Positions 1 to 19,662 of a DNA stretch of 64,000 bases are shown here, piece after piece. Each line of letters opens with the position of its first letter. The first letter of the stretch is position 1. This DNA is from Candidatus Giovannonibacteria bacterium RIFCSPHIGHO2_01_FULL_45_24 (lineage in GTDB: Bacteria > Patescibacteriota > Minisyncoccia > UBA11713 > 2-01-FULL-45-33), in assembly GCA_001778495.1 (NCBI GenBank), contig MFHE01000010.1, positions 55,292 through 119,291 on the forward strand, read 5' to 3'. Under the pieces are notes generated by a model. That model did not search any database, was not told the origin of the DNA, and worked only from the letters and a program-made list of their open reading frames with translations. A program made the translations under genes and the position numbers.

Positions 1-275
1 CATGCTCTCCTTCTTTTGGATTGGCGGCCAAAAAACTGCCTGGCCGAACAATAACGCCCTTGCCAATACTGATTTTGGAAGGGCAAATAAAATAAGAGCC
101 GGGGCGCAATTCCGCGGTCGCGTCAAAATGCCTGAACTTCTTCTTACAAAGCGCGCGCATTGTGGAATTAAAATGCAGTTTCCAATGAGTCCATGGAATA
201 TCAGGCCCGATCCTGTCGGCCGTCCGCCAGAATTTTATCCGATTAAAACATTCTTGAATCTTCATGGCATGTCAT
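1..275 (-). CDS. Partial (runs off window edge) hexapeptide-repeat (LbH) sugar O-acetyltransferase, WcaF-like
   Basis: Minus-strand translation starting at rc(273-275)=ATG reads MKIQECFNRIKFWRTADRIGPDIPW...FDATAELRPGSYFICPSKISIGKGVIVRPGSFLAAN. It shows [LIV]-G-x4 hexapeptide periodicity. It is not in the ORF track because it is open at the window edge. An AT-rich divergent spacer separates it from the + gene at 322. Confidence 0.35.
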
Positions 276-321
276 ATATAATAACCACATTTAAAGCCCG
301 GTTGTTACATTAATTATAATC

Positions 322-1833
322 ATGAAAATTTGCTTTCTGGCCCAGCGGCGCTTTGCTTATATCGCGCATTGTTTGGCAATTACGCTTAAAGAAAAATACG
401 GCATAACCGAATTTTGCGGGTATACTTCGCTTAGGACGAGCCATGATTTTTTGACGAACCAAAAAGAGATTAAATACAGCGCATTAATCTTTGACGAGGA
501 AATCCATGAGCGGTACAAAACAGAGCTGTTGGATTTGGCGTATTTAAATTGGCTGGAGCGCGCCTACGGGATTCCAAATCTCTGGCCGTACATAGCCATT
601 GATAGGGTCGTAATGTTTAACCAGCTGGTGCGCGAGTATCCATACGCCGCTCCACCCTATACTCACGAAGAAATGATGCGCATCCTTCAAGTGAGGGCCA
701 AAGCGATTATTGAATTTTTGGACAAAGAAAAGCCCGATGCTTTGGTGTTTTCGGTGCTCGGCGGCATGGGAGGATATCTTTTGCACGAGATAGCCGCGAA
801 AAAAGGAATCCAGCCGATAGCGATTTTGCCCGGATACACAAAAAATAAAACCATAATCAGCAAAAGATACGACCGCTTTACGGAGGTGGAGGAGATAGCA
901 AAACAAATTATAGCGGCCGGAGATGTGGCAAGGCGATGCCAAAAAGCATCTGATTTTCTGCGCAATTTCAGGAACGCGCCGCATCCCTACTATGACGGAG
1001 TGGACATTAAAAAGCTGGCCGTGAAGAGAGCAAGTCACTTTAATTTTTTAAAACCAAAAAATTTTGTAAGATTCATCAAGGTTTACTCAAAAGAGCTTTA
1101 TGACTACACCGCTAAAATGGATAGAAACGACTATACCTATATTAATCCCTTGTATTCTCTTTATGACCGGCTAAAGCGCAAAATAAGAAATCTCATCGGC
1201 GTGGAAGACCTATACGACGCTTTTAATCCGGACGTGGATTTCGCCTATTACACCCTGCAGATGGAGCCGGAAATTTCCACGCTCCTCCACGCGCCTTTCC
1301 ACGCCAACCAGCTGGTATTGGTCCGGCAAATCGCGCGCTCTTTGCCAGTGCATTTCACGCTTTACGTAAAAGAGCACCCGCAAATGGTGCCTTTCCGGCC
1401 GCGTTCCTATTATAAAGAGCTTAAAAAAATTCCGAATGTTAAATTGCTTGCTCCGTCAATCACAAGTTTTGAGATATTACCGAAAGCAAAGCTGGTGCTA
1501 ACCATCACGAGCACTGCCGGCTGGGAAGCGCTTTTTCTGGGAAAACCGGTCATCACCTTCGGCGACCAATTTTACAACGCCATATCAATGGTAAAAAAAT
1601 GCGAGCAGATAGACCTGTTGCCGTATATCGTAGAAGACCAGCTCCGGCGGTTTAACTTTGATGAAAAAGAGCTTTTGGCGTACATCCAAGGAATGTTGGA
1701 AGACGCCGCTCCGCTGGATCTGTCATATATCTGGGAACATGAAGCGGATTTGGAGAAAAAGCGGGCCGTACTGGAGCCGCTGGCCGATCTCTTGGCAAAA
1801 AAAATCAAGCTGTATGCTGAAAAAAATATATAG
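322..1833 (+). CDS. Capsule polysaccharide biosynthesis protein family (KpsS/LpsZ-like, Capsule_synth)
   Basis: 503-aa ORF with motifs YYTLQMEPEISTLLHAPFHANQLVLVRQIA and LYVKEHPQM, typical of the KpsS/KpsC capsule-synthesis family. Confidence 0.5.
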   Translation: MKICFLAQRRFAYIAHCLAITLKEKYGITEFCGYTSLRTSHDFLTNQKEIKYSALIFDEEIHERYKTELLDLAYLNWLERAYGIPNLWPYIAIDRVVMFNQLVREYPYAAPPYTHEEMMRILQVRAKAIIEFLDKEKPDALVFSVLGGMGGYLLHEIAAKKGIQPIAILPGYTKNKTIISKRYDRFTEVEEIAKQIIAAGDVARRCQKASDFLRNFRNAPHPYYDGVDIKKLAVKRASHFNFLKPKNFVRFIKVYSKELYDYTAKMDRNDYTYINPLYSLYDRLKRKIRNLIGVEDLYDAFNPDVDFAYYTLQMEPEISTLLHAPFHANQLVLVRQIARSLPVHFTLYVKEHPQMVPFRPRSYYKELKKIPNVKLLAPSITSFEILPKAKLVLTITSTAGWEALFLGKPVITFGDQFYNAISMVKKCEQIDLLPYIVEDQLRRFNFDEKELLAYIQGMLEDAAPLDLSYIWEHEADLEKKRAVLEPLADLLAKKIKLYAEKNI

Positions 1834-2650
1834 AGCGCTGTTTTTGCATAAGTTGTTTGACGCTCTGGTTAATGTTTACACTTTTTTTGCCGGATACCAT
1901 TTCCCGAAAAATTATATCAGGCGCTGGAAGTTGGATATGCTCTGCGACCTCTATGAGCAGGAAACAATTTCTCTTTTTAAAAAAATCGTAAAGCCCGGCA
2001 TAGCGGTGGCTGATATCGGAGCTCACATCGGCTATTACACCAGGGTTGCTTCAGGATTGGTTGGAAGCGGCGGAGCGGTTTACGCTTTTGAGCCAGACCC
2101 GGAAAATTTTAAGCTGCTCCAAAAAAATATCGGGCGTATGAAAAACGTAAAACCATACCAGCTTGCCGTATCCGACAAAACCGGCCGGATTGATTTTTAC
2201 CATTACGACGCGCGGAGCGGGGTTCACAGCACACTGCCCAACGTCCCGCTGGATTTTCAAAAAAAGAAAATAAGCGTTGAGGCCACCGACCTTGATTCGT
2301 TTTTTGCTAAATTAGGCGTTTCAAAAATTGACATCATAAAGATGGACATAGAGGGCGGGGAATACGCGGCCCTTCAGGGAATGAAAAAAATACTTTCAGA
2401 AAACAGGAATCTGGTGTTAATCGTTGAATTCGCTCCCGCTTGGGTTCTAGCAGCCGGAAATACTCCGTTAAAATTTTTAAATTTCATAGAATCTTTCGGG
2501 TTTGAAATTTTCGCCATCACAAAACAGGGCTTGTCAAAATTAAGCCCGGCGGCGAACGACGCCGATTACGCGAAATTCATACCCAAATCCGCCAGCGGCA
2601 CCAATTTCGGCGAATTCGTGAATTTATACTGCGTCAAATCAGAGATTTGA
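1814..2650 (+). CDS. FkbM-family SAM-dependent methyltransferase
   Basis: VADIGAHIGYYT...YAFEPDPENF...IDIIKMDIEGGEYAALQG matches the Methyltransf_21 (FkbM) pattern. The start is moved to the ATG at 1814, just inside the end of the upstream ORF. Confidence 0.7.
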   Translation: MLKKIYRALFLHKLFDALVNVYTFFAGYHFPKNYIRRWKLDMLCDLYEQETISLFKKIVKPGIAVADIGAHIGYYTRVASGLVGSGGAVYAFEPDPENFKLLQKNIGRMKNVKPYQLAVSDKTGRIDFYHYDARSGVHSTLPNVPLDFQKKKISVEATDLDSFFAKLGVSKIDIIKMDIEGGEYAALQGMKKILSENRNLVLIVEFAPAWVLAAGNTPLKFLNFIESFGFEIFAITKQGLSKLSPAANDADYAKFIPKSASGTNFGEFVNLYCVKSEI

Positions 2651-3818
2651 GCTTTTCATTCCAAATCGGGATTTGTTTTTGGTAATTCATTGAATCTTCG
2701 CGGATGCGCTTGTAGCAATTTCTGGAAAGCTCGGCGCGGAGGTCGTAGTCGCCAGCCAGTTTTTCTATGGCGCGCGCCAAATCATCGTGAGCGCCGTTTT
2801 TGACGTAGATAGCTGTATCTTTCGCCTGCCACTCAAGCCCTCCGCCGCCGGGCAAAATGGACGGCACTCCGAAAGCCATCGCATAGAGCTGGGAGATAGA
2901 AGTACCTTCCGGCTTCCAGCCCACTTGTATGTAAATATCCGCCTCCTTGTTGTATTGAAGCAGGCGCGGCCACGAAACCCATCCCGGAAACTCCACGTAT
3001 TTTTCTATCCTCAAATCTTTCGCAATTTTTTTGAGCGTCTCCGCTTCCGGCCCGGTGCCGGTCAAAACCATTTTAAAATTTTCTTTGTTTCTGACTCTGG
3101 CGAACCCGTGAAGCAGCAAATCAAACCCCTTTCCGCGGATCATCCGGCTTGAGTAAAAAAGAAGAAAGGGCCCAGCGCGCTTGTTGCGGTTAAGATAAGT
3201 ATCTTCCGAAATTCCGTTTTCCAGCATTATTTTTCCGAAATCAATCAAATCTCCTATCACAAAAGTGTTCGGGTCCTTTCGCAACCCAAAATCCTCGTAT
3301 ACCGTTTTGAGATTCGGGCTCACGAAAGCAAAAACATCAATGCGGTTGGCGAGCGGCATGCCGATGTATTTTTCAATCAGCCAGCGTATTTTCTTTTTTG
3401 CGCGGACAAAAATGTTTTCTTTCGGCTGCAGGGCCATGCTTATCGCTGTGTCGTCCCAGCACATCAGGTAATAATTAAAATACGCCGCCACCGGAATTCT
3501 CCCGCCCAGAAGCTTATAAAGCCCGGCGCCGTATAAAAAAATATGGCCGTCAATGTGGAAAATGTCGGCCATTTTTTCGTACTTCTTTAAAATTTTATAA
3601 AGCTGCCAGGCAATGCCAAAAAGGCGCTTTGAAGTGATTTGCTCCTCTATGACTTCGTACGGGCGTTTTTCCAAAATGACATTACTGGCGGAAAAAGCGG
3701 TTATTGTTTTGACGTCGTTGCCCAGATTCTGCAGGGTCTGCATAAGCAAATCCAGCTCCTCAATTGAGCCGCCGGCGGTTTTGAAATTCAGCTTGGAAGT
3801 TATAAATAAAATTCGCAT
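2634..3818 (-). CDS. GT4 (GT-B fold, family 1) glycosyltransferase
   Basis: C-terminal Rossmann region GFDLLLHGF...VLTGTGPE...PGWVSW...YIQVGW...SISQLYAMAFGVPSILP has the GT4 E-x7-E region layout. Confidence 0.75.
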   Translation of the reverse strand: MRILFITSKLNFKTAGGSIEELDLLMQTLQNLGNDVKTITAFSASNVILEKRPYEVIEEQITSKRLFGIAWQLYKILKKYEKMADIFHIDGHIFLYGAGLYKLLGGRIPVAAYFNYYLMCWDDTAISMALQPKENIFVRAKKKIRWLIEKYIGMPLANRIDVFAFVSPNLKTVYEDFGLRKDPNTFVIGDLIDFGKIMLENGISEDTYLNRNKRAGPFLLFYSSRMIRGKGFDLLLHGFARVRNKENFKMVLTGTGPEAETLKKIAKDLRIEKYVEFPGWVSWPRLLQYNKEADIYIQVGWKPEGTSISQLYAMAFGVPSILPGGGGLEWQAKDTAIYVKNGAHDDLARAIEKLAGDYDLRAELSRNCYKRIREDSMNYQKQIPIWNEKLKSLI

Positions 3819-3842
3819 GTTGCACGTTTCGTGTTTTATGCT

Positions 3843-4433
3843 TCATGCTTTGCGACCATTTGGATACCCGAGCTTGGCGGCGTATTCCAGCATTGTTTCT
3901 TTGGGCCTTTTTTTAACCGGCCTAGCGGGGCTCCCGGCGTAAATCGTCCATGGCTCCGTATCCTTGGTGACAACCGCGCCAGCGCCGACAACCGAACCCT
4001 CGCGCAATGTCACTCCCGGCAAAATAATCGCCCCAGCGCCGACATTGGCGAAATTTTCAAAAACAACGGGCGCGATTTTAAATCTCCGGAATTCTTCGGG
4101 AATCCCCTGCGCCCCGATTAGCCCGTCGCCTAAAAAAGTGTCGGATACGCAAATAATTCTTCCGCCAACCGCGATATTGGTAAAATTGCCCATTTTCAAA
4201 AGTCCCGGTTTGCCGCCGATTACCGCGACATAAGGGCCGATATGTATATAATCTCCCAACTCGGCTTGGGTGGTAAGGTAAAATCCAGAATCAATGTCAA
4301 CATTGCTGCCCAAAGACACCAGCTGCGGCCTTCTGATTTCCACACTCGCGCTTATAAAAACATTCTTGCCAACCGATTTGAGCAAGGATTTATCGTATTG
4401 CGGAGAATTTAATTGATTGGAATTTTTATTCAT
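3843..4433 (-). CDS. Left-handed beta-helix (hexapeptide) acyl/acetyltransferase, sugar N/O-acetyltransferase-like
   Basis: Runs of [LIV]GxxxxI hexapeptides (IAVGGRIICVSDTFLGDGLIGAQGI, VGAGAIILPGVTLREGSVVGAGAVV). Confidence 0.7.
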   Translation of the reverse strand: MNKNSNQLNSPQYDKSLLKSVGKNVFISASVEIRRPQLVSLGSNVDIDSGFYLTTQAELGDYIHIGPYVAVIGGKPGLLKMGNFTNIAVGGRIICVSDTFLGDGLIGAQGIPEEFRRFKIAPVVFENFANVGAGAIILPGVTLREGSVVGAGAVVTKDTEPWTIYAGSPARPVKKRPKETMLEYAAKLGYPNGRKA

Positions 4434-4440
4434 ACGCTTA

Positions 4441-5253
4441 TTATATCAATTTTAATAAATAATGATTGGTCTCGTGAAGTTTAAAGCCAACCTTTTGATA
4501 AAGAGCGTTTGCTGCAATCCTTTTGGGATTGGTTGTTAACTCAACCACCTCTACTCCGTTAGATTTTGCCCACCTTAAAAGATCAAGCAAAATTTTTTCG
4601 CCTAATCCTTTGCCGCGATACCTGTCGTCAACAATCATATCTTCAATTACAGCTTGACGCCGCAACATGGTTTGCCGAGGAAAAATCCAGCCCATGCCGA
4701 TAAATTCGCCGCCTTCTTCAACCGTGCTCACATAGCCATCAAGTATCGCCTTATAGAGCGACTGCTCATTCAATACGGCGGTTGAATCAAGCTGGGAAAC
4801 AAGCTCTCGCGCCTTGTTTAAATCATAAGTAAATTTATTTTTTATAAATTCCAGTATTTTTTGGTTTGAATCAAAAGCAATGTCTATTTCGTCTGGACGA
4901 AGCCAAGCGTATTCCGAATTTTCCTCGTTGAGTTTTATTTCTCCTTTCAATTCAACAAAATAGGCGAAGCACAAAGTCGGATATTCGTACTTTTTATAAA
5001 AACCAACCCCAGTGAAAACCCCGATGTAAAAAAGGGATTCAGCATCAATATTTAATTCTTCTTTAATCTCGCGCCTTAAAGCTTCTTCGGGAGTTTCGTT
5101 CTTCTCAATGTACCCACCCATAAAATCCCACTTATTTTGAAAGGGAGGAATATTTCGCTTCAGCACCAAAAGCCGGCCATTTTTTATGAAAATAGCGGTA
5201 GCGGTGGGTTTTGGGTTCTCAAAAGCGCAAAGCTCGCAGCCAGTGTTTTTCAT
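4441..5253 (-). CDS. NUDIX hydrolase - GNAT acetyltransferase fusion protein
   Basis: N-terminal half carries a canonical Nudix box GYIEKNETPEEALRREIKEELNI (G-x5-E-x7-REUxEE). C-terminal half carries the GNAT motif RYRGKGLGEKILLDLLRWAKSNGVEVVELTTNP...LYQKVGF. Confidence 0.65.
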   Translation of the reverse strand: MKNTGCELCAFENPKPTATAIFIKNGRLLVLKRNIPPFQNKWDFMGGYIEKNETPEEALRREIKEELNIDAESLFYIGVFTGVGFYKKYEYPTLCFAYFVELKGEIKLNEENSEYAWLRPDEIDIAFDSNQKILEFIKNKFTYDLNKARELVSQLDSTAVLNEQSLYKAILDGYVSTVEEGGEFIGMGWIFPRQTMLRRQAVIEDMIVDDRYRGKGLGEKILLDLLRWAKSNGVEVVELTTNPKRIAANALYQKVGFKLHETNHYLLKLI

Positions 5254-5525: not shown

Positions 5526-6746
5526 ATGAAATGTCAAATCTGCGGGAATAAAAATCTGGAGTCGGTTCTGGATTTGGGGCATCAGCCGATTGTGCAGGCG
5601 TATCTTACAAAAAAGCAGCTCCACGAGCCGGAGGTGACTTATCCGCTGCATTTATGCCGCTGCGCGAAATGCGGCCTTTTGCAACTGGATTCAATAATTG
5701 CTCCGGAGCTTGTTTTCCCGAAAAACTACCCTTACCGCACCGGACTTACTAACATGCTTATCAGAAATTTCCGCGAGCTCGCTGGCTCTTTAGAAACAAA
5801 ATATAATCTTTCCAAAAATGACTTAATCATAGATATCGGTTCAAACGACGGAACGCTCCTTCAGAGTTTTAAAGAAAAGGGCATGCGCGTTTTGGGAGTT
5901 GAACCAACGGACGCCGCGAAAGCCGCGAACAAAAACGGCATTTCCACAATACAAGAATATTTCACAAAAAGCACAGCGAAGAAAATATTAAAAAAATACG
6001 GCAAGGCAAAAATCGTAACTGCAACCAACACTTTTGCGCATATCCCCAACCCAGTAGAACTTACGAAAAACATCAAAAGCGCGCTCGCGCCGGACGGAGT
6101 GTTTGTTTCCGAATCTCAATATCTCATGGACATAGTAGAAAAGTTTGAGTTTGACACAATTTACCACGAGCACCTGCGTTTTTATTCTCTCAAGCCCTTA
6201 ATCAAGCTTTTTGCCCTTGCCGGGATGAGCTTGATTGACGCGGAGCGCATATCGTCCTCTGGCGGCTCAATCAGAATTTTTGCAAAACCCGGTCGGCATA
6301 AAATGAGCGCGGGCGCAAGAAATCTCATGGCCGCTGAGGAGAGGGCGGGGCTTTACAACAAAGCAAAACTCCACAAATTTGCGCAAAAAGCAATAATCGC
6401 GAAAAATAATCTGCTGAAACTTTTGATTGAATTAAAACAAAAAGGCGCGAAAATAGCGGGGATAACAAGCTCCGCGCGCTCCAATACTCTTCTGGGCTTT
6501 ACAAAAATAGACAGCCAGATTCTTGACTACTCCGTGGAAAAAGCCGGGTCGCCGAAAATCGGGCTTTTCACCCCCGGAACGCATATCCCCGTGCTTGAGG
6601 AGGATAAATTATTCAAGGACCAGCCGGACTACGCCTTAGTGCTTTCCTGGCATATCGGAGAAGAGCTTATGAAAATACTTCGCAAAAACGGATATAAGGG
6701 CAAATTTATAATGCCGCTTCCAAAAGCAAGAATTTATGGAAAATAA
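5526..6746 (+). CDS. NDP-hexose C-methyltransferase-like SAM methyltransferase (TylCIII/NovU-type: Zn-ribbon Methyltransf_13 plus C-methyltransferase Methyltransf_14)
   Basis: N-terminal CQICGNKNLESVLDLGHQPIVQAYL...CRCAKCGLLQL double CxxC zinc ribbon, then class-I MTase IIDIGSNDGTLL...VLGVEPT and a C-terminal domain. Confidence 0.7.
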   Translation: MKCQICGNKNLESVLDLGHQPIVQAYLTKKQLHEPEVTYPLHLCRCAKCGLLQLDSIIAPELVFPKNYPYRTGLTNMLIRNFRELAGSLETKYNLSKNDLIIDIGSNDGTLLQSFKEKGMRVLGVEPTDAAKAANKNGISTIQEYFTKSTAKKILKKYGKAKIVTATNTFAHIPNPVELTKNIKSALAPDGVFVSESQYLMDIVEKFEFDTIYHEHLRFYSLKPLIKLFALAGMSLIDAERISSSGGSIRIFAKPGRHKMSAGARNLMAAEERAGLYNKAKLHKFAQKAIIAKNNLLKLLIELKQKGAKIAGITSSARSNTLLGFTKIDSQILDYSVEKAGSPKIGLFTPGTHIPVLEEDKLFKDQPDYALVLSWHIGEELMKILRKNGYKGKFIMPLPKARIYGK

Positions 6747-7827
6747 AAAAATCCCCTGGTGGCAGCCGCAGGTTGAGAAAGAAGATTATGAATTTATCAA
6801 GCGAGCGCTTGACGCCAATTTTGTAAACGAAGGCCCGCTTACGGAAGAATTTGAAAAAAAAATCGCTTATTTTGTCGGGGCAAAACATGCCGTAGCGACT
6901 ACTAGCTGCACGGCCGCGATTTTTTTGTCTTTAAAAGCCGTAGGAGTCGGGCAGGGAGATGAAGTCATCGTGCCGGACGCGACTTTTATAGCGACAGTCA
7001 ATGCAGTTGAGCTTGCAGGCGCGAAACCCGTATTAGTAGATATTGACCCTGAAACACTGGCAATAAGCGTTGAGGCAATAAAAAAAGCAATAACGCCAAA
7101 AACCAAAGCGATAATCCCGGTGCATGTCACCGGAAGAGGTGCCAATATGGAGGCGATTTTAGACATTGCCAAAAAAAATAATATTTTCGTGATAGAAGAC
7201 GCCGCCGAAGCGCTTGGCTCAAAGCACAAAGGAAAATTTCTGGGAACTTTGGGGAGTGCGGGTTGTTTTTCTTTCGCCGCGAATAAAACCCTGGCAACCG
7301 GGCAGGGCGGGATGATTGTGACCGATAGCGACGAGGTTTTTAAAAAATTGCGCCCGTTAAAAGACCATGGCAGGCCAGTCCACGGAACGGGAGGAGACGA
7401 TACGCACGATACTATCGGCTACAATTTCCGCATGACCGATTTGCAGGCCGCCGTAGGGCTTGGGCAATTCGCGCATTTAAAAGAGCGACTCCAGAGAATG
7501 AAAAAAAATTACCAGCTTTACGCCGAAAATTTAAAAGACATTAAAGAGATAAAAATTTTCCACTCCCGAAGCGAGGAGATGCCCCAATGGACGGACGTCG
7601 CAACGGACAAACGGGACGAGCTTGAAAAATATCTTCGCGGAAAAAATATTGATTGCCGAAAATACTGGCATCCTATCCACCGCCAGCTCCCCTACAAGCT
7701 CCCTGATGAAAACTTTCCGGTGAGCTCCGCGCTCCTGCCGAAATCCCTCTGGCTTCCATCCGCTTTCACGCTGACGGATGAAGATGTTTTGCGAGTTTGC
7801 GACGAGATAAAAAAGTTTTTTTGGTAA
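6736..7827 (+). CDS. DegT/DnrJ/EryC1/StrS-family PLP-dependent sugar aminotransferase
   Basis: HAVATTSCTAAIFLSLKAVGVGQGDEVIVPDATFIATVNA...IIPVH..G...FVIEDAAEALGS...GCFSF..NKTL has the PLP-lysine region of DegT-family enzymes. Confidence 0.8.
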   Translation: MENKKIPWWQPQVEKEDYEFIKRALDANFVNEGPLTEEFEKKIAYFVGAKHAVATTSCTAAIFLSLKAVGVGQGDEVIVPDATFIATVNAVELAGAKPVLVDIDPETLAISVEAIKKAITPKTKAIIPVHVTGRGANMEAILDIAKKNNIFVIEDAAEALGSKHKGKFLGTLGSAGCFSFAANKTLATGQGGMIVTDSDEVFKKLRPLKDHGRPVHGTGGDDTHDTIGYNFRMTDLQAAVGLGQFAHLKERLQRMKKNYQLYAENLKDIKEIKIFHSRSEEMPQWTDVATDKRDELEKYLRGKNIDCRKYWHPIHRQLPYKLPDENFPVSSALLPKSLWLPSAFTLTDEDVLRVCDEIKKFFW

Positions 7828-12861: not shown

Positions 12862-13927
12862 TTAAGATTTTGGCTATCCGCGCCACCTCTCTTGTTTTCA
12901 AAAACGGGTGCATTGGCAAAGAGAAAATTTCTTTGGAATGTTTTTCGGCGTTGGGGAATTTGCCTTTATAATTAAAAACCGGCTGGCGGTGCAAAAGAAG
13001 CGGATAATGAATCATTGTTTGAATGCCATTTTTTTTCAAGTCCGCCATTAAAGCATCACGGTTTTGGACGCGCGCGACAAAGAGATGATAAACGTGTTCG
13101 TTTTCGTTATTTATTGCAGGTAGAATAATATTCTTGTTACTGACCAGTTTTTCATATAATTTAGCGATATCTCTTCTTTTTTGATTCCACTTATCCAAAT
13201 ATTTCAATTTAACGCTTAAAATCGCCGCTTGTTTTTCATCCAAACGGCTGTTGATGCCGAACATCGCGCTTGTTACCCGGTCGTGCGCCCCATAAAAACG
13301 CAATGCCAGCAGTTTTTTATAATAATCCTCGCTATTTGTGGTAATGGCGCCGCCATCCCCGTAAGCGCCAAGATTTTTCGTCGGATAAAAACTAAAACAG
13401 CCAAAATCTCCCCAGCCGCCGACTTTTCTGCCGTTCCATTCCGCTCCGCTGGCTTGGGCGCAATCTTCTATTAAAAATATCTTATGCGCTTTCGCGAGAG
13501 CTTTTAGCTTTTCCATATCGCAGGCGCACCCGTAAAGATGCACAGGCATTATCGCTTTTGTCCTTTTATTTATAAGCGCAGGAATTTTATTTGCGTCTAT
13601 CAAAAAATTCTCATCAGAGTCGCAAAAAACCGGGTTCGCTCCGCTCATCTTAACCGCCATGGCGGTGGCCAAGGCAGTGTTTACGGGCACAATTACTTCA
13701 TCTCCTCGACCGATGCCCAAAGCAAGCAAGCTTAAATAGAGCGCGTCTGTTCCGGATGCGACTCCGACGGCATATCGGACGCCGCAATATTTCGCGAATT
13801 TTTTTTCAAAATTTTCCACTTCCGGTCCCAAAATAAAAAACCCGCGCCGCAACACCCTGCTGATTGCGGCGTCAATTTCTTTTTTGATCAATCGATATTC
13901 GCGATTGAAGTTAACGAAATGTATCAT
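12854..13927 (-). CDS. DegT/DnrJ/EryC1/StrS-family sugar aminotransferase
   Basis: YAVGVASGTDALYLSLLALGIGRGDEVIVP...IMPVHLYG...FLIEDCAQASG...FSFYPTKNLGAYGDGGAI. Confidence 0.8.
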   Translation of the reverse strand: MIHFVNFNREYRLIKKEIDAAISRVLRRGFFILGPEVENFEKKFAKYCGVRYAVGVASGTDALYLSLLALGIGRGDEVIVPVNTALATAMAVKMSGANPVFCDSDENFLIDANKIPALINKRTKAIMPVHLYGCACDMEKLKALAKAHKIFLIEDCAQASGAEWNGRKVGGWGDFGCFSFYPTKNLGAYGDGGAITTNSEDYYKKLLALRFYGAHDRVTSAMFGINSRLDEKQAAILSVKLKYLDKWNQKRRDIAKLYEKLVSNKNIILPAINNENEHVYHLFVARVQNRDALMADLKKNGIQTMIHYPLLLHRQPVFNYKGKFPNAEKHSKEIFSLPMHPFLKTREVARIAKILNA

Positions 13928-13949: not shown

Positions 13950-14711
13950 TTATAATTTTTTAGCCAAGCACACAATTGATAAGCCAAAAGGCAAATTTAT
14001 ATAAGGTAACAATCCTGCTTCCGCCGCCAATACATAATATAACCACCGATCCAACCAATATGGCACGTTGAACAAGCTTTTTGTATGATCGTTGCAAGAA
14101 GGAAAAGGCCGTTCCAATAATCTAATCACTAACGCAACAGGAAAAAGAAAAAAATTAACATAACTGGCTTTCATGACTATAAATCCATTATCTTCTAATT
14201 TCTTAATCAATTCTTTTCTAGTATATCGGTGTTTGGTCCAAACCATTCTGTCGTGATGGCTTTGCAGCCAATCAAACGCCGGTTCGCGCAACAATAGCAA
14301 GCCGCCGCGGCGTAATACCCTGGCAAATTCCCGCAAAACCGCTTTGTCGTCGCTAATCGAACTGTGGTATAACACATCGTTGCAGTTCACTAAATCGTAA
14401 GACGCACTCTTGCAAGGCAATTTCTCCAAATTCCCTTCCAGTATCGTGGCTTTCTTCCTAAGATTGGCATATAAAACTGCTTTCGGATTAATATCTACGC
14501 CCGTAACGGTGCCGTAGCGCCCAAGAAGGTCTAGCATACCTCCTGTACCGCACCCTGCATCTAAAATATTATTATCTACACCTCTCACGTATTTATCCAA
14601 AATAATCTTGCTGATTTTTCTCATTCCGCGATACCACCAAAAAGCATCCTCGTGAGCATAAATATCATCGTATACCCTGCTTTCCATAAACAAGTTTACT
14701 TCTTCCTGCAA
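13950..14711 (-). CDS. Class-I SAM-dependent methyltransferase
   Basis: ILDAGCGTGGMLDLL...GVDINPKA...YDLVNCNDVLYH...RVLRRGGLLLL. The N-terminal WWYRG motif is shared with 29650..30447. Confidence 0.7.
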   Translation of the reverse strand: MQEEVNLFMESRVYDDIYAHEDAFWWYRGMRKISKIILDKYVRGVDNNILDAGCGTGGMLDLLGRYGTVTGVDINPKAVLYANLRKKATILEGNLEKLPCKSASYDLVNCNDVLYHSSISDDKAVLREFARVLRRGGLLLLREPAFDWLQSHHDRMVWTKHRYTRKELIKKLEDNGFIVMKASYVNFFLFPVALVIRLLERPFPSCNDHTKSLFNVPYWLDRWLYYVLAAEAGLLPYINLPFGLSIVCLAKKL

Positions 14712-15529
14712 ATAATTGTTTGCATCATGCCGCCGCCGAAAACCGCAGTAAGCGTAAAAACAGCGGCTACTCCGGCGCGATAAACGGCTTCTAAAACCGC
14801 ATTGCTTTTTGGCACATCTAAAGCGGCTAGCGGGAAATTATGATTTCTTTGCAAAAGAATTTCAAATCCGCAGTTTTCCAAAAGTTTTTTCAAAGACGCG
14901 TTTGTATAATGCTGCAGATGCGCGTGGTCATAAAGCCTGTCATACGGACCCATAATGCCAAGCGCTTTCAATAAGTCGGCTAAACGATAAATTAGGCCAT
15001 TGCTGTTAATCGTCGCAACAACAGCTATGCCCTCGCGCCCCAAAGCGCTGAAAATATTTTTAGTAAATAAAACAGGATTTTCCATATGCTCAATAGCCAT
15101 AAGACTGGTAACAACATCAAAATTTTGCTTGAGCTCCATTGTATTAAAATCGCCGTGCATAAAAGAAATGTTTGCGTCTTCAAAAAGCCGGGCGATGTCA
15201 ACTCCATACAGCGCAGTTTTTTTTCGGTAATTGGCAAAAAACTTTAAAAAATCTCCATTTCCGCAGCCAACATCCAAAAGCGCAATATTTTTATGGCCGA
15301 AATGCGCATTGACTTGATCCGCTATAAACCGAAAAAGTTTCGTGTTCGGATTTTTAAACCAATTCTCGTGTTCTTTGGAAAAATAATCATGATTATATTT
15401 TTTTTGCCGGGCCGCAGGTATAACAGTAAACACATGGCTACATAAAGAGCATTCGTAAATGGAGAGCTCGGCATCTTTAGTCAGATTATTGGCGGCGTTG
15501 CTACATATTGTGCATCTGGCTTGATTCAT
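14696..15529 (-). CDS. Class-I SAM-dependent methyltransferase with N-terminal Cys4 zinc ribbon
   Basis: CTICSN...CSLCSH, then LLDVGCGNGDFLKFF...GVDIA...FDVVTSLMAIEHMENP. Confidence 0.65.
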   Translation of the reverse strand: MNQARCTICSNAANNLTKDAELSIYECSLCSHVFTVIPAARQKKYNHDYFSKEHENWFKNPNTKLFRFIADQVNAHFGHKNIALLDVGCGNGDFLKFFANYRKKTALYGVDIARLFEDANISFMHGDFNTMELKQNFDVVTSLMAIEHMENPVLFTKNIFSALGREGIAVVATINSNGLIYRLADLLKALGIMGPYDRLYDHAHLQHYTNASLKKLLENCGFEILLQRNHNFPLAALDVPKSNAVLEAVYRAGVAAVFTLTAVFGGGMMQTIICRKK

Positions 15530-15930
15530 ATTTTTACAAACTTCAAAAACTCGTCGTAATCCCTGATATAATCGCTTGCGTCTTCAAAATCGTCAGCCAC
15601 GACAAGTATAACGCAATCCTTTGAAAAATCCGTCATTGAATGCCACACCCTTTTTTTAAGCCGCATGCCGCGCGCCGGGTCATTCATAGCAACGCTCCAT
15701 TTTTTGTTTCCGTCATCCATATGGAGCGTGAATGAGCCCAGCAGGCAAAAAATTACCTGCTCCCGCTTTTTATGCGCGTGCATCCCGCGCGCGATTTTGC
15801 CGTCCGGGACGTTCCGTATAAAATAAAACTCTTTTATGGCAAACGGTATTTGCTCATAAATCTTGCCGGCGTATAATTCGCCGACTGGACCTTTAATGGA
15901 TTTTAAAATAATTTCGTCTGGATTTGCCAT
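15526..15930 (-). CDS. FdtA/WxcM-type cupin, dTDP-sugar 3,4-ketoisomerase-like
   Basis: FYFIRNVPDGKIARGMHAHKKREQVIFCLLGSFTLHMDDG...WHSMTDFSKDCVILVVADDFEDASDYIRDYDEF closely follows the FdtA family pattern. Confidence 0.7.
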   Translation of the reverse strand: MANPDEIILKSIKGPVGELYAGKIYEQIPFAIKEFYFIRNVPDGKIARGMHAHKKREQVIFCLLGSFTLHMDDGNKKWSVAMNDPARGMRLKKRVWHSMTDFSKDCVILVVADDFEDASDYIRDYDEFLKFVKI

Positions 15931-15942
15931 ATGTTAGCGGCA

Positions 15943-16683
15943 TTATTTTTTTGGATAAGTTTTTAGCAATTTTCTCATTTTGAAAAACAGCTTTACGTCG
16001 CCAATCAGCTTCTCTTTAAGAAGCGTAAAAGCGGTATAACTTGATTTGCCATATTCCCGTTCATAATGATTTACATAAACTTCCGCGAATCTGGCGCCGG
16101 CCAGCTCCAATTTTTTAATCATTTCCGGCAAAATTGAGGCGTTTCCGGACTCCAGAACAATTTTGTCCATAACGCTTTTCCTAATTAAACGAAAATCGCA
16201 ATCAACATCTCTTATTGGCAGTTGAAAGAAGAAGCGTGCCAACACAGCATAACTCTTGCTTAAAAAATCCCGCAAAAAACCATATCTCCTATCTTTTTTA
16301 TAACCGTTAACAACATCTGCGCCTGTTTCTTTGTATTTATTCACCAATTTTGGGAAATCGTCTTCCAAACGATACTGCGCGTCGCCGTCGGTATAAAAAA
16401 CAAATTCTTTGGAGCAAGCCGCAAAACCATATTTAATGACAGCGTATCCTTCCGTGTTGTCCCTTTTATCAACAATTTTGAGCTGTGGAAATTTTTCCTT
16501 CATCTCTAAAATCTTTTTAAATGTCCCGTCTTTTGATGGACCGCCGTGAAGGGCAATAACCTCCAAATCATTTGTGAATTTTAAACCAACCTCGTAAGCG
16601 CTAGCAATCATTTTTTCAACATTGCCTTCTTCGTTATAAAAAGGAAAAAAAATTGAAAGGGAGGATAGTTTACTTTCCGCCAT
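15943..16683 (-). CDS. GT2 glycosyltransferase (paralog of the GT2 domain of the upstream fusion)
   Basis: SIFFPFYNEEGNVEKM...FVFYTDGDAQY.. has the GT2 DxD architecture. The start is moved to the internal MAESK Met. Confidence 0.65.
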   Translation of the reverse strand: MAESKLSSLSIFFPFYNEEGNVEKMIASAYEVGLKFTNDLEVIALHGGPSKDGTFKKILEMKEKFPQLKIVDKRDNTEGYAVIKYGFAACSKEFVFYTDGDAQYRLEDDFPKLVNKYKETGADVVNGYKKDRRYGFLRDFLSKSYAVLARFFFQLPIRDVDCDFRLIRKSVMDKIVLESGNASILPEMIKKLELAGARFAEVYVNHYEREYGKSSYTAFTLLKEKLIGDVKLFFKMRKLLKTYPKK

Positions 16684-18436
16684 GTCGTTTGAGTCCGTCT
16701 TTAAATAAAACCGTCTCCGTCCACAGGCGCATAAGGCGCCAAGCAACCAAAAAAAGGCGCGGAAAATTTAGCGCTTCAGATTTGCCGTAAGTCCTGAAAT
16801 AATGGCTGACTCCGGCTTCGGCATAGCGGAAACCGGCGTTATGCGCTTTTTTAAGCATCTCTATAGAAAGCACGCCGGAGTTATGCGTCAGCTCCAAAGA
16901 ATCAAGGACTTTTTTCCTAAACAGCCGAAACTCGCAATCGGGATCGCTAATCGGCATCCGGAAAAACCATCTTATAAACCTTCTGTAGGCCTCGCTGATA
17001 ATAATTCTGTGCATTGGCTCCATTTGTTTTGAATGATAACCAACCACAATATCCACGTCATCATTTAAACTTTTCACCAAGGCCGGCAAATCTCCAACAT
17101 CATACTGGCCGTCGCCGTCGGTGTAAAAAATAAAATCCTTCGTCGCCGTACTAAAGGCGCTCTTGAGAGCTGCGCCGTAGCCCATTTTCTTTTCATGGAA
17201 AACCAGTTTTAATTCCGGAATGCTTTTTTGAAGTTCTAAAAGAAACTCACGACTTCCGTCAGAAGAATAATCGTCCGCGACGATAATTTCAAAATCATCA
17301 GTAAATGTCTGTGCAACCCTTCTTCCTTCCAAAATCATGGTTGAAATTGTCCCTTTCATATTAATACAGGGAAAAATCATAGATAAAGACGCAACAGACA
17401 AGCCCGCAAAAGCCCTTTTTCTGATGTCCGCGGACGAGCGTCTCATTTGCTCGCTTGTGCTTTCATATTTTCTTAAAGCGCCATTAAGCCATGCATGATT
17501 TTCTTTATACCAATCAATGGTCACCGGGATATGGCTGTCCAGCGAATGCCGCGGGCGCCATCCTAAAGCGAGCAACTTTGACGGATTAACCGCATACCTC
17601 CTGTCATTTGCCGGACGGTCTTCAACGAAAGTAATCAGATTTTCCCGCTTGTTTAAAATTTTTAATATTTTTCCGGCAATATCCATGTTTGAGCATTCTT
17701 CATCTGCGGAAACTCCGTATGTCTCCCCATAAGGGGCTTTTTCCAAAAGAGCGAGAACAGCGCGGGTGTGGTCGTCTACGTGAATCCACGACCGCACATT
17801 CAAACCGCTGCCGTGAATCGGCAAGGGCTTGTTGTCCATTGCCAGCATGGCGAAAAACGGAATTACTTTTTCCGGATGCTGCCTCGGCCCAAAATTATTG
17901 ACCGAACGCGAAATAATCACCGGCAGGCCGTAGGTCTTTTGATAAGCGCGCACCAGCATCTCTCCTGCGGCCTTGGAAGCGGCGTACGGGGAATTCGGCT
18001 TAAGCGGCGACTCTTCGGTGAACTTCTCATGCGACTTAAAATGCAAGTCGCCCCAGACCTCGTCCGTTGAGATATGAACCATTTTTTTAACGTTGGGCGA
18101 GCCCCTCAACGCCTTTAAAAGCGAGTGGACGCCGACGACGTTGGTATGCACAAAATCGTCGGCGTCGGAATGGATTGACCTGTCCACATGGCTCTCGGCA
18201 GCAAAGTTTACTACAAAGTCGGATTCCAGCATCAGCTTTTTTACGAGCTCCGTGTCGCAAATGTCCCCTTTCACAAACCGGTATCTGGACGGCGGCACGC
18301 CGCGAAGATTTTCTTCGTTCCCGACGTAAGTCAAAAGGTCAAGATTTATGACGAAACTTTCGGGGAAATTATCCAAAATATAATGGATAAAATTAGACCC
18401 CATAAACCCGCACCCTCCCGTAACAAGAAAAGTCAT
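16670..18436 (-). CDS. Fusion: dTDP-glucose 4,6-dehydratase (RmlB-like) N-terminal domain plus GT2 glycosyltransferase C-terminal domain
   Basis: MTFLVTGGCGFMGSNFIHYIL...ISTDEVWGDL...YAASKAAGEMLV is the RmlB/extended-SDR signature. The last ~250 aa are IIVADDYSSDGSREFL...FIFYTDGDGQYDVGDL (GT2). Confidence 0.75.
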   Translation of the reverse strand: MTFLVTGGCGFMGSNFIHYILDNFPESFVINLDLLTYVGNEENLRGVPPSRYRFVKGDICDTELVKKLMLESDFVVNFAAESHVDRSIHSDADDFVHTNVVGVHSLLKALRGSPNVKKMVHISTDEVWGDLHFKSHEKFTEESPLKPNSPYAASKAAGEMLVRAYQKTYGLPVIISRSVNNFGPRQHPEKVIPFFAMLAMDNKPLPIHGSGLNVRSWIHVDDHTRAVLALLEKAPYGETYGVSADEECSNMDIAGKILKILNKRENLITFVEDRPANDRRYAVNPSKLLALGWRPRHSLDSHIPVTIDWYKENHAWLNGALRKYESTSEQMRRSSADIRKRAFAGLSVASLSMIFPCINMKGTISTMILEGRRVAQTFTDDFEIIVADDYSSDGSREFLLELQKSIPELKLVFHEKKMGYGAALKSAFSTATKDFIFYTDGDGQYDVGDLPALVKSLNDDVDIVVGYHSKQMEPMHRIIISEAYRRFIRWFFRMPISDPDCEFRLFRKKVLDSLELTHNSGVLSIEMLKKAHNAGFRYAEAGVSHYFRTYGKSEALNFPRLFLVAWRLMRLWTETVLFKDGLKRHGGK

Positions 18437-18470
18437 ATCCCTTATAACTTAGCAGACGAACTCAAGGTTT

Positions 18471-18501
18471 AGCAAATAAAATAGCGCGCAGGGCGCGCTA
18501 T
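18471..18501 (-). terminator. Rho-independent terminator downstream of the cupin gene
   Basis: Minus strand: AUAGCGCGC-ccu-GCGCGCUAU followed by UUUAUUUGCU. Confidence 0.5.
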
Positions 18502-18520
18502 CTATGAGGTATTCCGGACG

Positions 18521-18940
18521 CTATAGCTTTTTACAGGCACAAGACGGAAGACTTGAAATCGATTCCGCGGGATTGTAATTTGTTGAAGCAATGCAGATTA
18601 AAACAGTGCCTGGATCGAGCCGGGCATCATGCCAAACATCGCCCGGTATAAAAAGAGCCCGATCGCGGCTATCCAAAACCACCTCTTGGCATTCTTTCGC
18701 ACTATGAAGGTTTGTCGTGACTCTTCCCACGGGGACGAGCCAGATCTCTTGTTTCCCTCCATGAGGATGGTAGTGCCCGCCACGTTTAATAGCATCTCCA
18801 GTGTTGTTGACGATGTAATAAACCCTGCGAGCGGCCTCGAAAGCGCCATTTGTATCTCTAATAACTTCGGACGCCACCAATACCCCGCCGCGCTTTTGAT
18901 CAACGAATTCCAAAAATTTGACAACGGCCCATTTAGTCAT
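18521..18940 (-). CDS. Cupin-fold sugar epimerase/ketoisomerase-like protein (WxcM/RmlC-like)
   Basis: RGGHYHPHGGKQEIWLVPVGRV...ALFIPGDVWHDARL. Paralogous to 7977..8393. Confidence 0.5.
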   Translation of the reverse strand: MTKWAVVKFLEFVDQKRGGVLVASEVIRDTNGAFEAARRVYYIVNNTGDAIKRGGHYHPHGGKQEIWLVPVGRVTTNLHSAKECQEVVLDSRDRALFIPGDVWHDARLDPGTVLICIASTNYNPAESISSLPSCACKKL

Positions 18941-18975
18941 TGTTTGCGCCTCTCCTTTCTGGTTACAAAGCTATA

Positions 18976-19662
18976 TTACTTTATTGGCTTAGTCAAGAGC
19001 AGGTGGAATGTATTAAAATATAACGGACGAAGTAATGTAAAATATAAAACAAAAAACGGCAAGCGCGTAGCGCCGAAGAATTTTCTGATTTTTTCTTTTC
19101 GAATGTCTTCTGCGGAAAAACCGGCGGCGCGGACAAGCTTCGCGGCGCGGCTATAAGTGTAATAATGCATCGTAGTCAGTTTCTGGCGGCCGGCGGAGCC
19201 GTCCTCTTTTTGTTTTCCTAAAAATTTTAAAATCGGCCCGGTCCACGCTCTTGGCATCCAATTAATAAAATGCAAATGATAATGGTAATCGTAGACGCCC
19301 CAGCGGTTGTGGAAACTTATGTAGCATCTGCAGCCGGGCTTCAATACGCGGAAAATTTCCTGAAGCATGCGCGCCGGATTATCTACGTGCTCGCTGACCT
19401 CGGCGCAATTGACAAAATCAAAATGATTATCTGGAAACGGCAAATTTTCCGCGCTTGCTCGGACAACTTTTCCGCCTATGGCGGAAAAAACGCGCTCTGG
19501 GCTTGACTCCACTCCGTACGCATCAAATCCCAAGCCGGCCATCTCGCGCAAAAAATTTCCTTTGCCGGAGCCCACGTCCAAAACCTTGCCGCCAATCGGA
19601 ACAAATTGTCCGCAATATTCAGCGTGGCTCATTTTTATTAAAAACAAAAAACTTATAGCCAA
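18976..19662 (-). CDS. Class-I SAM-dependent methyltransferase
   Basis: VLDVGSGKGNFL...GVESSPE...FDFVNCAEVSEHVDNP...RVLKPGCRCYISF. Confidence 0.65.
   Translation of the reverse strand: MAISFLFLIKMSHAEYCGQFVPIGGKVLDVGSGKGNFLREMAGLGFDAYGVESSPERVFSAIGGKVVRASAENLPFPDNHFDFVNCAEVSEHVDNPARMLQEIFRVLKPGCRCYISFHNRWGVYDYHYHLHFINWMPRAWTGPILKFLGKQKEDGSAGRQKLTTMHYYTYSRAAKLVRAAGFSAEDIRKEKIRKFFGATRLPFFVLYFTLLRPLYFNTFHLLLTKPIK

Follow-up and report, generated by a model that had tools for sequence, protein, structure and literature searches.

The 64,000-nucleotide stretch analysed here, hereafter the window, spans positions 55,292 to 119,291 of contig MFHE01000010.1 of Candidatus Giovannonibacteria bacterium RIFCSPHIGHO2_01_FULL_45_24 (assembly GCA_001778495.1), a very small, uncultivated groundwater bacterium of the Patescibacteria. 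Its first 19,662 positions hold a dense set of sugar-modifying genes, among them one for a TylCIII-type nucleoside diphosphate (NDP)-sugar C-methyltransferase. We read this region as the left part of a cell-envelope glycan supercluster that combines at least two nucleotide-sugar tailoring branches with machinery for export on a lipid carrier, and we put the probability of this reading at roughly 60%. The locus probably supplies sugars to the cell envelope rather than to an antibiotic. The kind of system is known. New are two gene fusions, one joining a dTDP-glucose 4,6-dehydratase (RmlB) to a family 2 glycosyltransferase (GT2) and the other joining a UDP-glucose dehydrogenase (UGDH)-like region to a methyltransferase, together with a family of predicted GT-C membrane glycosyltransferases that no Pfam model recognises and a C-methyl module found across the candidate phyla radiation (CPR). 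In the sources searched, neither the fusions nor the membrane transferase family had a specific functional annotation. The evidence consists of domain identities, catalytic motifs, folds, synteny and co-occurrence.

Extent and organisation of the glycan supercluster

Pfam and NCBIfam scans showed that the glycan genes extend from before the start of the window to about position 46241, thus covering more than 46 kb of the 64-kb window. The block 1..19662, singled out by an original prediction made from the bare sequence, is their left end. Housekeeping genes, namely those for SecD, DHFR, ThyA, L11, NusG, GyrB, PheS and UppS, lie in the right-hand third. From 29635 down to 7977, 21 genes are all co-directional, with gaps of at most 84 nt. 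This array includes a ten-gene minus-strand operon running from 18436 to 7977, in which neighbouring genes overlap or are separated by no more than 36 nt and which is bracketed by terminator-like hairpins at 18503-18479 and 7956-7942. Its genes encode, in order of transcription, the RmlB-GT2 fusion, a GT2, an FdtA-type isomerase, two class I methyltransferases, a DegT aminotransferase, a 578-aa membrane protein, the dehydrogenase-methyltransferase fusion (DH-MT), a short-chain dehydrogenase/reductase (SDR) and a small cupin.

A C-methyltransferase module with predicted C-4 amination and acylation

The genes of the first tailoring branch considered here, and those beside them, are as follows.

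5526..6746, plus strand: NDP-sugar C-methyltransferase of the TylCIII/TcaB9/MtmC type (three Pfam domains, full-length alignments with PDB entries)
6736..7827, plus strand: DegT aminotransferase, probably of the C-4 type; 11-nt overlap with the gene of the C-methyltransferase
8469..9470, minus strand: extended SDR (SDR1), 137 bits on TIGR01181, below the cut-off of 365
9507..11123, minus strand: DH-MT, a UGDH-like N-terminal and central domain fused to a class I S-adenosylmethionine (SAM) methyltransferase (PF00984, 43 bits; PF03721; Methyltransf_11)
3843..4433, minus strand: AntD-like hexapeptide N-acyltransferase with a left-handed beta-helix (LbH) (AntD entries 3vbk, 3vbi and 3vbn, E 2e-29 over residues 15-179)
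4441..5253, minus strand: NUDIX hydrolase fused to a GNAT acetyltransferase (PF00293, 76 bits; PF00583, 62 bits), the third acyltransferase of the block
2634..3818, minus strand: GT4 glycosyltransferase of the conserved module (Glycos_transf_1, 82 bits)
322..1833, plus strand: Capsule_synth (KpsC/KpsS-like) glycosyltransferase (PF05159, 52 bits)
2..265, minus strand: first 88 codons of a hexapeptide-repeat acyltransferase gene truncated at the window edge; 94% identity with residues 1-88 of a Hexapep protein (183 aa) encoded in CP066687.1

The presence of a TylCIII-like C-methyltransferase had been predicted, and a search for the Methyltransf_13 and Methyltransf_14 domains in 5526..6746 had been set beforehand as its test. 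Both domains were found above their cut-offs (PF08421, 76 bits against 31.3; PF08484, 134.7 bits against 23.5, residues 245-399), and Methyltransf_23, also above its Pfam cut-off, completes the three-domain architecture. In PDB searches, the protein aligned end to end with MtmC (4rv9, 6e-72), TcaB9 (3ndi, 3e-65) and KijD1, with E values ranging from 6e-72 to 4e-62. All 20 homologues compared retain the zinc cysteines C3, C6, C46 and C49, which line up with the cysteine pairs of MtmC and TcaB9. Across the same 20 sequences, Y68, H172, Y213 and H216 are invariant and E215 is nearly so; these five residues align with Tyr76, His181, Tyr222, Glu224 and His225 of TcaB9, which we take, with the numbering of the mutant structures 4e2w-4e33, to form its active site. 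The predicted site of methylation on an NDP-4-keto sugar is the carbon adjoining the keto group, most likely C-3.

The family is large: homologues at E<=1e-30 form 3578 clusters at 50% identity, and a scan of species-representative genomes returned at least 579 loci. The 120 top matches are 62-87% identical to the window protein and bear names from at least eight CPR candidate phyla. A second, divergent C-methyltransferase occurs in some CPR genomes. One copy (locus L004, 18571-19800) has SDR and cupin neighbours of its own, and another (L024, on the same contig as L006) is 48% identical to that of the window.

The overlapping aminotransferase gene is translationally coupled to that of the C-methyltransferase. 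Two DegT aminotransferases had been predicted in the block and both were recovered, those at 6736..7827 and 12854..13927 scoring 376 and 391 bits, respectively. The coupled protein best matches perosamine synthase (3bn1, 2e-65, 224 bits), ArnB (4e-54, 187 bits) and Kdo8N transaminase in the PDB. The C-3 enzymes DesV and QdtB follow at 168-169 bits, a modest margin below perosamine synthase and ArnB. Its SFAANK motif carries a lysine at the position expected for pyridoxal phosphate (PLP). Divergently transcribed on the other side of the C-methyltransferase lies the AntD-like gene, and one of its structural matches, 3vbn, is AntD, the N-acyltransferase for dTDP-4-amino-4,6-dideoxyglucose in anthrose synthesis (PMC6031040). 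It is the complete member of the two LbH acetyltransferases that had been described, the other being the fragment at the window edge. Because the C-methyltransferase is coupled to a C-4-type aminotransferase and has an AntD-like neighbour, a C-methyl, N-acylated amino sugar is a reasonable prediction for the product of this branch.

Stand-alone NUDIX genes, corresponding to the NUDIX part of the fusion at 4441..5253, recur beside the C-methyltransferase in other lineages (L004 and the Bradyrhizobium locus L034).

The SDR 8469..9470 was examined as the possible source of the keto sugar. Besides its low RmlB score, its motif reads SSNE rather than TDE, and it reaches 64 bits on the NCBIfam model for UDP-4-keto-pentose synthase. 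The motifs SS[NS]E.Y and YxxxK are conserved across 77 homologues. A glutamate in the S-S-[NS]-E position characterises 4,6-dehydratases and UDP-glucuronate decarboxylases, both of which abstract the proton at C-5. We also considered the SSNE and GPR motifs as discriminators between dehydratase and decarboxylase, and they were not decisive.

To follow the module in other genomes, 85 fetched loci were split by the identity of their C-methyltransferase to that of the window: 22 at 55% or above (close relatives, mostly labelled Patescibacteria) and 63 more distant, which include Bradyrhizobiaceae, Xanthobacteraceae, archaea and Omnitrophota. Some records with CPR-like syntenic loci are labelled "uncultured Gammaproteobacteria" or "Saccharibacteria", and we did not rely on these labels. 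Among the close relatives, the GT4 was found in 18 out of 22 loci, the C-4-type DegT in 17, the SDR in 16, Capsule_synth in 12 and the DH-MT fusion likewise in 12, the dehydrogenase counts being lower bounds (tblastn with the CPR domain missed a Bradyrhizobium UGDH later found by Pfam). An SDR homologue lies immediately beside the C-methyltransferase in 62 out of the 63 more distant loci. Since the SDR is kept even where an aminotransferase uses up the 4-keto group, it would make the 4-keto substrate rather than reduce it, and we regard it as the presumed generator of the NDP-4-keto sugar.

The steps of this branch can thus be proposed. The SDR would deliver an NDP-4-keto sugar, the TylCIII/TcaB9-type enzyme would add a methyl branch next to the keto carbon, the coupled DegT would place an amine at C-4 and the AntD-like hexapeptide transferase would acylate it. 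The predicted product is an anthrose- or kansosamine-like 4-acylamino-3-C-methyl sugar. The DH-MT fusion appears to belong to the same module, its role being suggested by linkage alone.

A dehydrogenase-methyltransferase fusion and a possible uronic-acid start

The fusion 9507..11123 is described in public annotation only as "class I SAM-dependent methyltransferase" or "hypothetical protein"; its sequence matched a protein of a RIFCSPHIGHO2 Giovannonibacteria genome at 100% identity. Its dehydrogenase part retains the catalytic set of the UGDH/GDP-mannose dehydrogenase family, with GYGWVG, K178, N182, C225 and D229 invariant; GGHCLPKD and PEFL are, like K178 and N182, invariant in 27 homologues. 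The predicted fold superposes on UGDH with a root mean square deviation of 3.8-3.9 Å over about 297 columns. PF03720, the C-terminal UDP-sugar-binding domain, had no match in this protein, in which the class I methyltransferase occupies that position. The family comprises about 383 clusters, and every named match comes from CPR.

Given this enzyme, the module might start from a uronic acid, in a manner resembling the Arn pathway. The fusion would oxidise an NDP-hexose, the SDR would oxidise C-4 and decarboxylate, as ArnA and UDP-xylose synthase (UXS) do, and the resulting NDP-4-keto-pentose would undergo C-methylation, ArnB-like amination and acylation to a C-methyl 4-acylamino-4-deoxy-pentose. 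The intact UGDH catalytic set and fold speak for such a route, as does the position of the fusion directly next to the SDR in CPR loci. The arrangement has a parallel outside CPR. In a metagenome-assembled genome of Bradyrhizobium sp. (L034, 4388-12838), one operon encodes a methyltransferase, a complete UGDH-family dehydrogenase, a GT2, a NUDIX protein, a GFO/IDH/MocA protein, the SDR, the C-methyltransferase and a membrane protein, so that the dehydrogenase and the methyltransferase are there separate genes. Homologues of these operon genes recur in 25-44 of the 85 loci, many of them non-CPR, and those of the dehydrogenase and the methyltransferase in 37 and 31, respectively. The SS[SN]E motif of the SDR also resembles what we take to be the TSE motif of UXS and ArnA; human UXS is among its close PDB matches, the coupled DegT matches ArnB (see above), and two AsnB-like amidotransferases elsewhere in the cluster suggest uronic acids.

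Against this stand the dehydrogenase domain's missing UDP-sugar-binding C-terminal domain and the SDR's scores, which favour the RmlB model over that of UDP-4-keto-pentose synthase (137 against 64 bits). Moreover, no pentose-acting enzyme is known to us among the characterised members of the C-methyltransferase family, and the role of the fused methyltransferase is left unexplained by this route as well. We consider a uronic-acid start possible but doubtful. With either start, the module would yield a C-methyl, aminated and acylated sugar. A 6-deoxyhexose backbone is uncertain because a dehydrogenase of uronic-acid type is linked to the partner SDR, which itself is not RmlB, and an RmlB-based route for the C-methyl sugar is not established.

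A second proposed branch with RmlB, FdtA and a QdtB-like aminotransferase

The other proposed branch is encoded in the ten-gene operon, and its genes are listed here together with the two remaining cupins.

16670..18436, minus strand: fusion of RmlB (TIGR01181, 399 bits, above the cut-off of 365, residues 3-317) and an ArnC-like GT2 (residues 348-575), 588 aa
15943..16683, minus strand: GT2 closest to ArnC-type polyprenyl-phosphate glycosyltransferases (PF00535, 60 bits; ArnC the best NCBIfam match, below its cut-off)
15526..15930, minus strand: FdtA/QdtA-type 3,4-ketoisomerase (PF05523, 123.5 bits; FdtA 2pa7 at 7e-30; HAH at residue 51)
12854..13927, minus strand: DegT aminotransferase of the C-3 type, QdtB/DesV-like (QdtB 3frk, 1e-95; WlaRG 5u1z, 2e-92; DesV 2oga, 1e-88)
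18521..18940, minus strand: divergent FdtA-family cupin (PF05523, 48.5 bits, cut-off 23; HYH motif), assigned by the Pfam criterion alone
7977..8393, minus strand: small cupin with a GGHYHP motif (Cupin_2, 27.7 bits against 27.2; below the FdtA model)

An RmlB-like 4,6-dehydratase had been expected in the block. A true RmlB is present as the N-terminal half of 16670..18436, with STDEVWG at residue 123 and YAASK at residue 151, and the free SDR does not qualify as a second one. The GT2 half of the fusion is 38% identical to the neighbouring GT2, 15943..16683. The aminotransferase 12854..13927 matches QdtB at 324 bits, compared with at most 197 bits for C-4 enzymes, and has a lysine at the expected PLP position within an SFYPTK motif. 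As for the three WxcM/FdtA-type cupins that had been described, 15526..15930 is a clear FdtA, 18521..18940 a weaker one, and 7977..8393 matches Cupin_2 only. The last two are distant paralogues, 28% identical, and both contain GGHYHP.

In this branch, the RmlB domain would form dTDP-4-keto-6-deoxyglucose, FdtA would shift the keto group to C-3, and the QdtB-like DegT would aminate C-3 to give a dTDP-3-amino-3,6-dideoxyhexose. The operon lacks the usual FdtC/QdtC-type N-acetyltransferase and has in its place two methyltransferases, encoded between FdtA and DegT, which may then methylate the aminosugar on nitrogen or oxygen. The RmlB-GT2 fusion would couple the first committed step to the presumed lipid-loading step.

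Methyltransferases of the block

Besides the C-methyltransferase and the C-terminal domain of DH-MT, four methyltransferases are encoded in 1..19662.

1814..2650, plus strand: FkbM-family methyltransferase (ORF from 1658; ATG at 1814 gives 278 aa, as in the relative CP066687.1; PF05050, 91 bits; TIGR01444, 110 bits)
13950..14711, minus strand (ORF; gene listed as 13950..14687): class I methyltransferase carrying WWYRG near its N terminus and a hydrophobic tail at its C terminus (Methyltransf_11, 76 bits; two hydrophobic segments)
14696..15529, minus strand: class I methyltransferase with an N-terminal CxxC...CxxC segment (Methyltransf_23, 69 bits)
18976..19662, minus strand (ORF; gene listed as 18976..19632): class I methyltransferase (Methyltransf_11, 76.5 bits)

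The Pfam and NCBIfam scans therefore bear out the count of six methyltransferases, including FkbM and four further class I enzymes. Of the two WW(Y/F)RG proteins that had been placed here, 13950..14711 has WWYRG; the HWWFRG copy belongs to a seventh methyltransferase, 29650..30447, which lies outside the block and is 34% identical to the former. An rRNA or tRNA methyltransferase assignment, named in the original prediction as an alternative, was not convincing for any of these proteins, for which the scans gave weak FtsJ/TRM5 matches to the SAM-binding part only. Orthology of the free class I methyltransferases to the sugar N,N-dimethyltransferase DesVI was also considered and found no support in their generic PDB matches.

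Several class I enzymes might instead act on lipids (a polyprenyl carrier or membrane lipids), proteins or other metabolites and merely be co-located with sugar genes. Their PDB matches are compatible with this, the best including phosphoethanolamine N-methyltransferases and UbiG, and the hydrophobic tail of 13950..14711 suggests a membrane-bound substrate. Gene content is also strain-variable, since a 172-aa methyltransferase replaces 13950..14711 in CP066687.1. However, the methyltransferase genes are interleaved in tight sugar operons (FdtA, two methyltransferases, DegT; GtrA, methyltransferase, RmlB), and five methyltransferases keep their position in that relative. DH-MT, which unites its methyltransferase with a sugar-dehydrogenase fold in one protein, accompanies the C-methyl module across CPR, and a methyl group placed on a lipid-linked sugar would still modify a sugar. 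We therefore judge non-sugar substrates for these enzymes unlikely. The original prediction of one or more highly methylated, branched, N-acylated deoxy-amino sugars stands as to a C-methyl, N-acylated amino sugar. A single highly methylated sugar is unlikely, because the genes form at least two sugar branches and several transcription units, and the 6-deoxy nature of the C-methyl sugar is uncertain, as noted above.

Proposed lipid-linked delivery and a family of predicted GT-C membrane proteins

11125..12861, minus strand: predicted GT-C-fold membrane glycosyltransferase of a Pfam-less family, 578 aa (AlphaFold2 model, pLDDT 92.5; Foldseek)
19619..22519, minus strand: GtrA, SDR, HAD phosphatase and UbiA-type polyprenyl-phosphate phosphoribosyltransferase (Pfam; NF008977, 243 bits, above the cut-off of 234), in the same co-directional array and outside the block of the original prediction

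The membrane protein 11125..12861 had no match in Pfam or NCBIfam scans. Its 27 top Foldseek matches in the PDB are all GT-C enzymes, with a probability of 1.00 and TM scores of 0.4-0.55, and comprise STT3, PglB, AglB, DPY19, AftA, ALG9/12, ArnT and EmbB. An acidic residue of the first external loop, D42, is invariant in the family. Two paralogues, 25346..27166 and 27171..28907, likewise lack a Pfam or NCBIfam match, the three proteins being about 580-606 aa long. Named homologues are all from CPR, and some are fused to a GT2. On the basis of the structural model, we predict that 11125..12861 and its paralogues are GT-C glycosyltransferases.

The GT-C fold, the GT2-GT-C fusions, GtrA, UppS and the matches of the GT2 domains to ArnC-type enzymes, which stay below curated cut-offs, support a scheme of polyprenyl-phosphate loading, flipping and external transfer. 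Cytoplasmic GT4 and Capsule_synth transferases would use some of the sugar products, and the ArnC-like GT2 domains, one of them fused to RmlB, would load others onto polyprenyl phosphate. GtrA-type proteins would then flip the lipid-linked sugars, and GT-C enzymes, including the Pfam-less family, would attach them outside the membrane. The likely fate of the cluster's products is loading onto polyprenyl phosphate, followed by transfer on the outside of the cell by the Pfam-less GT-C family. In all these schemes, we infer the substrates, the order of the steps, the regiochemistry of every methylation and the final acceptor from the genes.

Conservation of the locus in a close relative and across CPR

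The same gene order was found in another Giovannonibacteria genome, CP066687.1, with protein identities of 68-93% (most genes 81-93%; 68% for RmlB-GT2, whose match is cut by the end of the locus), which indicates that the arrangement is not due to chance. The 585-aa RmlB-GT2 fusion is also present there, and the GtrA/SDR/HAD/UbiA set is syntenic. A 222-aa counterpart of 18976..19662 lies between GtrA and RmlB-GT2, and the counterpart of 14696..15529 is 88% identical. To the left of the window's start, the cluster of the relative continues with CMP-sugar synthetase, HisH/HisF-like and GFO/IDH/MocA genes. It lacks both divergent cupins (7977..8393 and 18521..18940), the extra GT2 and the NUDIX-GNAT fusion; none of the related loci contains the cupin 7977..8393. 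The WWYRG methyltransferase of the window is longer than its counterpart in CP066687.1, and everything beyond UbiA, about 24 kb, is extra. Surface-glycan loci typically combine a conserved core with accessory genes that vary between strains.

On a wider scale, CPR bacteria may share an envelope-glycan cassette consisting of the SDR, a C-methyltransferase 59-88% identical across several candidate phyla, the C-4 aminotransferase, the AntD-like acyltransferase, the UGDH-methyltransferase fusion (found here only in CPR-labelled sequences), the GT4 and Capsule_synth. Such a cassette would build a C-methyl 4-acylamino sugar, possibly via an unprecedented uronic acid/4-keto-pentose route, and its sugars would pass to a previously unrecognised GT-C family. 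We advance this larger proposal tentatively and consider the odds to lean against it as a whole. If true, it would represent a signature surface sugar for uncultured episymbionts.

Surface glycan or antibiotic sugar

The original prediction held that this chemistry is more typical of antibiotic deoxysugar pathways than of surface glycans, and this did not survive the analysis. The closest characterised relatives of the C-methyltransferase (MtmC, TcaB9 and KijD1) do come from antibiotic pathways, and DesV is among the matches of DegT 12854..13927; a pathway of antibiotic type would use the sugars to decorate a small-molecule aglycone. However, none of the ORFs scanned over the 64 kb gave a Pfam match to aglycone families, including polyketide synthase, nonribosomal peptide synthetase and terpene families, or to a 2,3-dehydratase, a 3-ketoreductase or a GT1 (macrolide-type) glycosyltransferase. 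Surrounding the genes are about 20 GT2, GT4 and GT-C genes, GtrA and a polyprenyl-phosphate enzyme. The genome is of the CPR type (the complete genome of a close relative measures 651 kb), and the C-methyltransferase family is broad, occurring in numerous non-actinomycete bacteria and being common in Alphaproteobacteria and archaea. C-methyl sugars have, in addition, been described or proposed for surfaces: virenose in a Coxiella surface glycan (PMC3539893) and, according to a reference cited in PMC5644692, 3-C-methyl-rhamnose in a Phyllobacterium surface glycan. We regard an antibiotic-type secondary-metabolite pathway as highly improbable.

Several observations weigh against our reading of the region as an envelope-glycan locus with two tailoring branches and lipid-linked export. 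RmlA (glucose-1-phosphate thymidylyltransferase) was not found in any ORF of the window that was scanned, and we have to assume a supply of dTDP-glucose; a single cytidylyltransferase-like protein (49765..50364) sits among the housekeeping genes. By NCBIfam the SDR 8469..9470 is not RmlB, and its PDB matches spread about equally over dehydratases, epimerases and UXS. Tightly linked to it is the catalytically intact dehydrogenase-like domain of DH-MT, which fits a uronic-acid route better than a 6-deoxyhexose one. No reaction can be assigned to two of the three cupins. A PDB search with the three free class I methyltransferases, concatenated into one query, gave generic matches only, with E values of 1e-10 or weaker and none to DesVI. 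The best NCBIfam matches of the GT2 domains, to ArnC, PpgS and dolichyl-phosphate hexose transferase (DPM-synthase), reach only 48-59 bits against cut-offs of 370-529. Finally, no evidence from the window points to the acceptor molecule.

Comparison with known systems

Like TcaB9, KijD1, MtmC and TylCIII, the window enzyme combines a zinc domain, a SAM domain and Methyltransf_14, and it keeps the active-site residues. Those enzymes act on 2,6-dideoxy sugars in antibiotic pathways, whereas the window enzyme lies in an envelope-glycan context, has a partner SDR other than RmlB and is accompanied by no 2,3-dehydratase that the scans of the window could find. For a glycan gene, its identity of 59-88% to counterparts in other CPR lineages is unusually high.

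Anthrose (Bacillus exosporium) and N-acyl-kansosamine (Mycobacterium kansasii), both surface glycan sugars, share the predicted logic, in which a 4-keto sugar is served by a C-4 aminotransferase and then by an AntD-like N-acyltransferase. Kansosamine carries a 3-C-methyl branch together with an O-methyl group. In contrast to these pathways, the window has no enoyl-CoA hydratase or other acyl-donor gene, and the backbone may be a 6-deoxyhexose or a pentose. The FdtA/FdtB and QdtA/QdtB pathways (dTDP-Fuc3NAc and dTDP-Qui3NAc) resemble the second branch in having RmlB, an FdtA-type isomerase and a QdtB-like C-3 aminotransferase, here in one operon. They differ from it in that the operon of the window lacks the FdtC/QdtC N-acetyltransferase and has RmlB fused to a GT2, and its genes are compatible with either a galacto or a gluco outcome.

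As in Arn (4-amino-4-deoxy-L-arabinose, L-Ara4N) and Gtr-type periplasmic glycosylation, the window encodes a putative polyprenyl-phosphate GT2, a GtrA-family protein and predicted GT-C enzymes, and Ugd, ArnA and ArnB are echoed by the UGDH-like enzyme, the SDR and the ArnB-like DegT. Unlike Arn, it has no formyltransferase or deformylase, a C-methyltransferase is inserted, and the organism lacks lipid A. The mycobacterial route through decaprenylphosphoryl-phosphoribose (DPPR), decaprenylphosphoryl-arabinose (DPA), Aft and Emb is mirrored, in a CPR bacterium, by the UbiA-type phosphoribosyltransferase, phosphatase and SDR (with GtrA) of 19619-22519. With respect to the Arn, Gtr and DPA systems, the GT-C proteins of the window represent a new sequence family, and the GT2 matches fall below curated cut-offs. 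The pathway proposed for virenose in Coxiella burnetii lipopolysaccharide (CBU_0691) also places a TylCIII-like C-methyltransferase in a surface-polysaccharide locus, where it is proposed to act on an NDP-4-keto-6-deoxyhexose (PMC3539893). Virenose is not aminated, however, and the Coxiella pathway is itself predicted in silico only.

Our literature search yielded nothing specific on C-methyl sugars or glycan clusters of CPR bacteria. To our knowledge, no sugar composition has been determined for a CPR cell envelope, which presumably mediates attachment to the host. Glycan mass spectrometry, lectin or antibody probes and enzyme assays could be aimed directly at the conserved cassette, the new GT-C family and the two fusions. 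TylCIII-type C-methyltransferases, common in Alphaproteobacteria, archaea and CPR and paired there with the same SDR, are not markers of antibiotic pathways.

Other features of the window

22523..46241: rest of the glycan supercluster, with two AsnB-like amidotransferases, seven GT2, four GT4 (one a double-GT4 fusion), two PMT_2 GT-C proteins, the two further paralogues of the Pfam-less GT-C family and the methyltransferase 29650..30447 (Pfam scans, paralogy)

The two amidotransferases, asparagine-synthase-like and glutamine-dependent, are encoded at 22523-24382 and 39410-41194 inside the glycan cluster and may amidate the carboxyl groups of uronic acids. At the edge of the cluster, 46262-47773 encodes a 503-aa protein with lamin-tail and PKD domains, which could be a surface protein and a possible target of glycosylation. 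The cluster is adjoined by genes for DHFR, dCMP deaminase, thymidylate synthase and a thymidylate-kinase-like protein (49139-53982), all on the route of dTTP supply; their position beside a cluster that apparently uses dTDP-sugars may be a coincidence. A search for tRNA genes in the window found none. We discarded as spurious a 103-aa ORF at 2..313 on the plus strand, which has no family match and overlaps the genuine minus-strand LbH fragment. Farther to the right, genes for a C39-like peptidase (58210-58731) and an NlpC/P60 peptidase (59852-60304) lie on either side of the gene for the phenylalanyl-tRNA synthetase alpha subunit.

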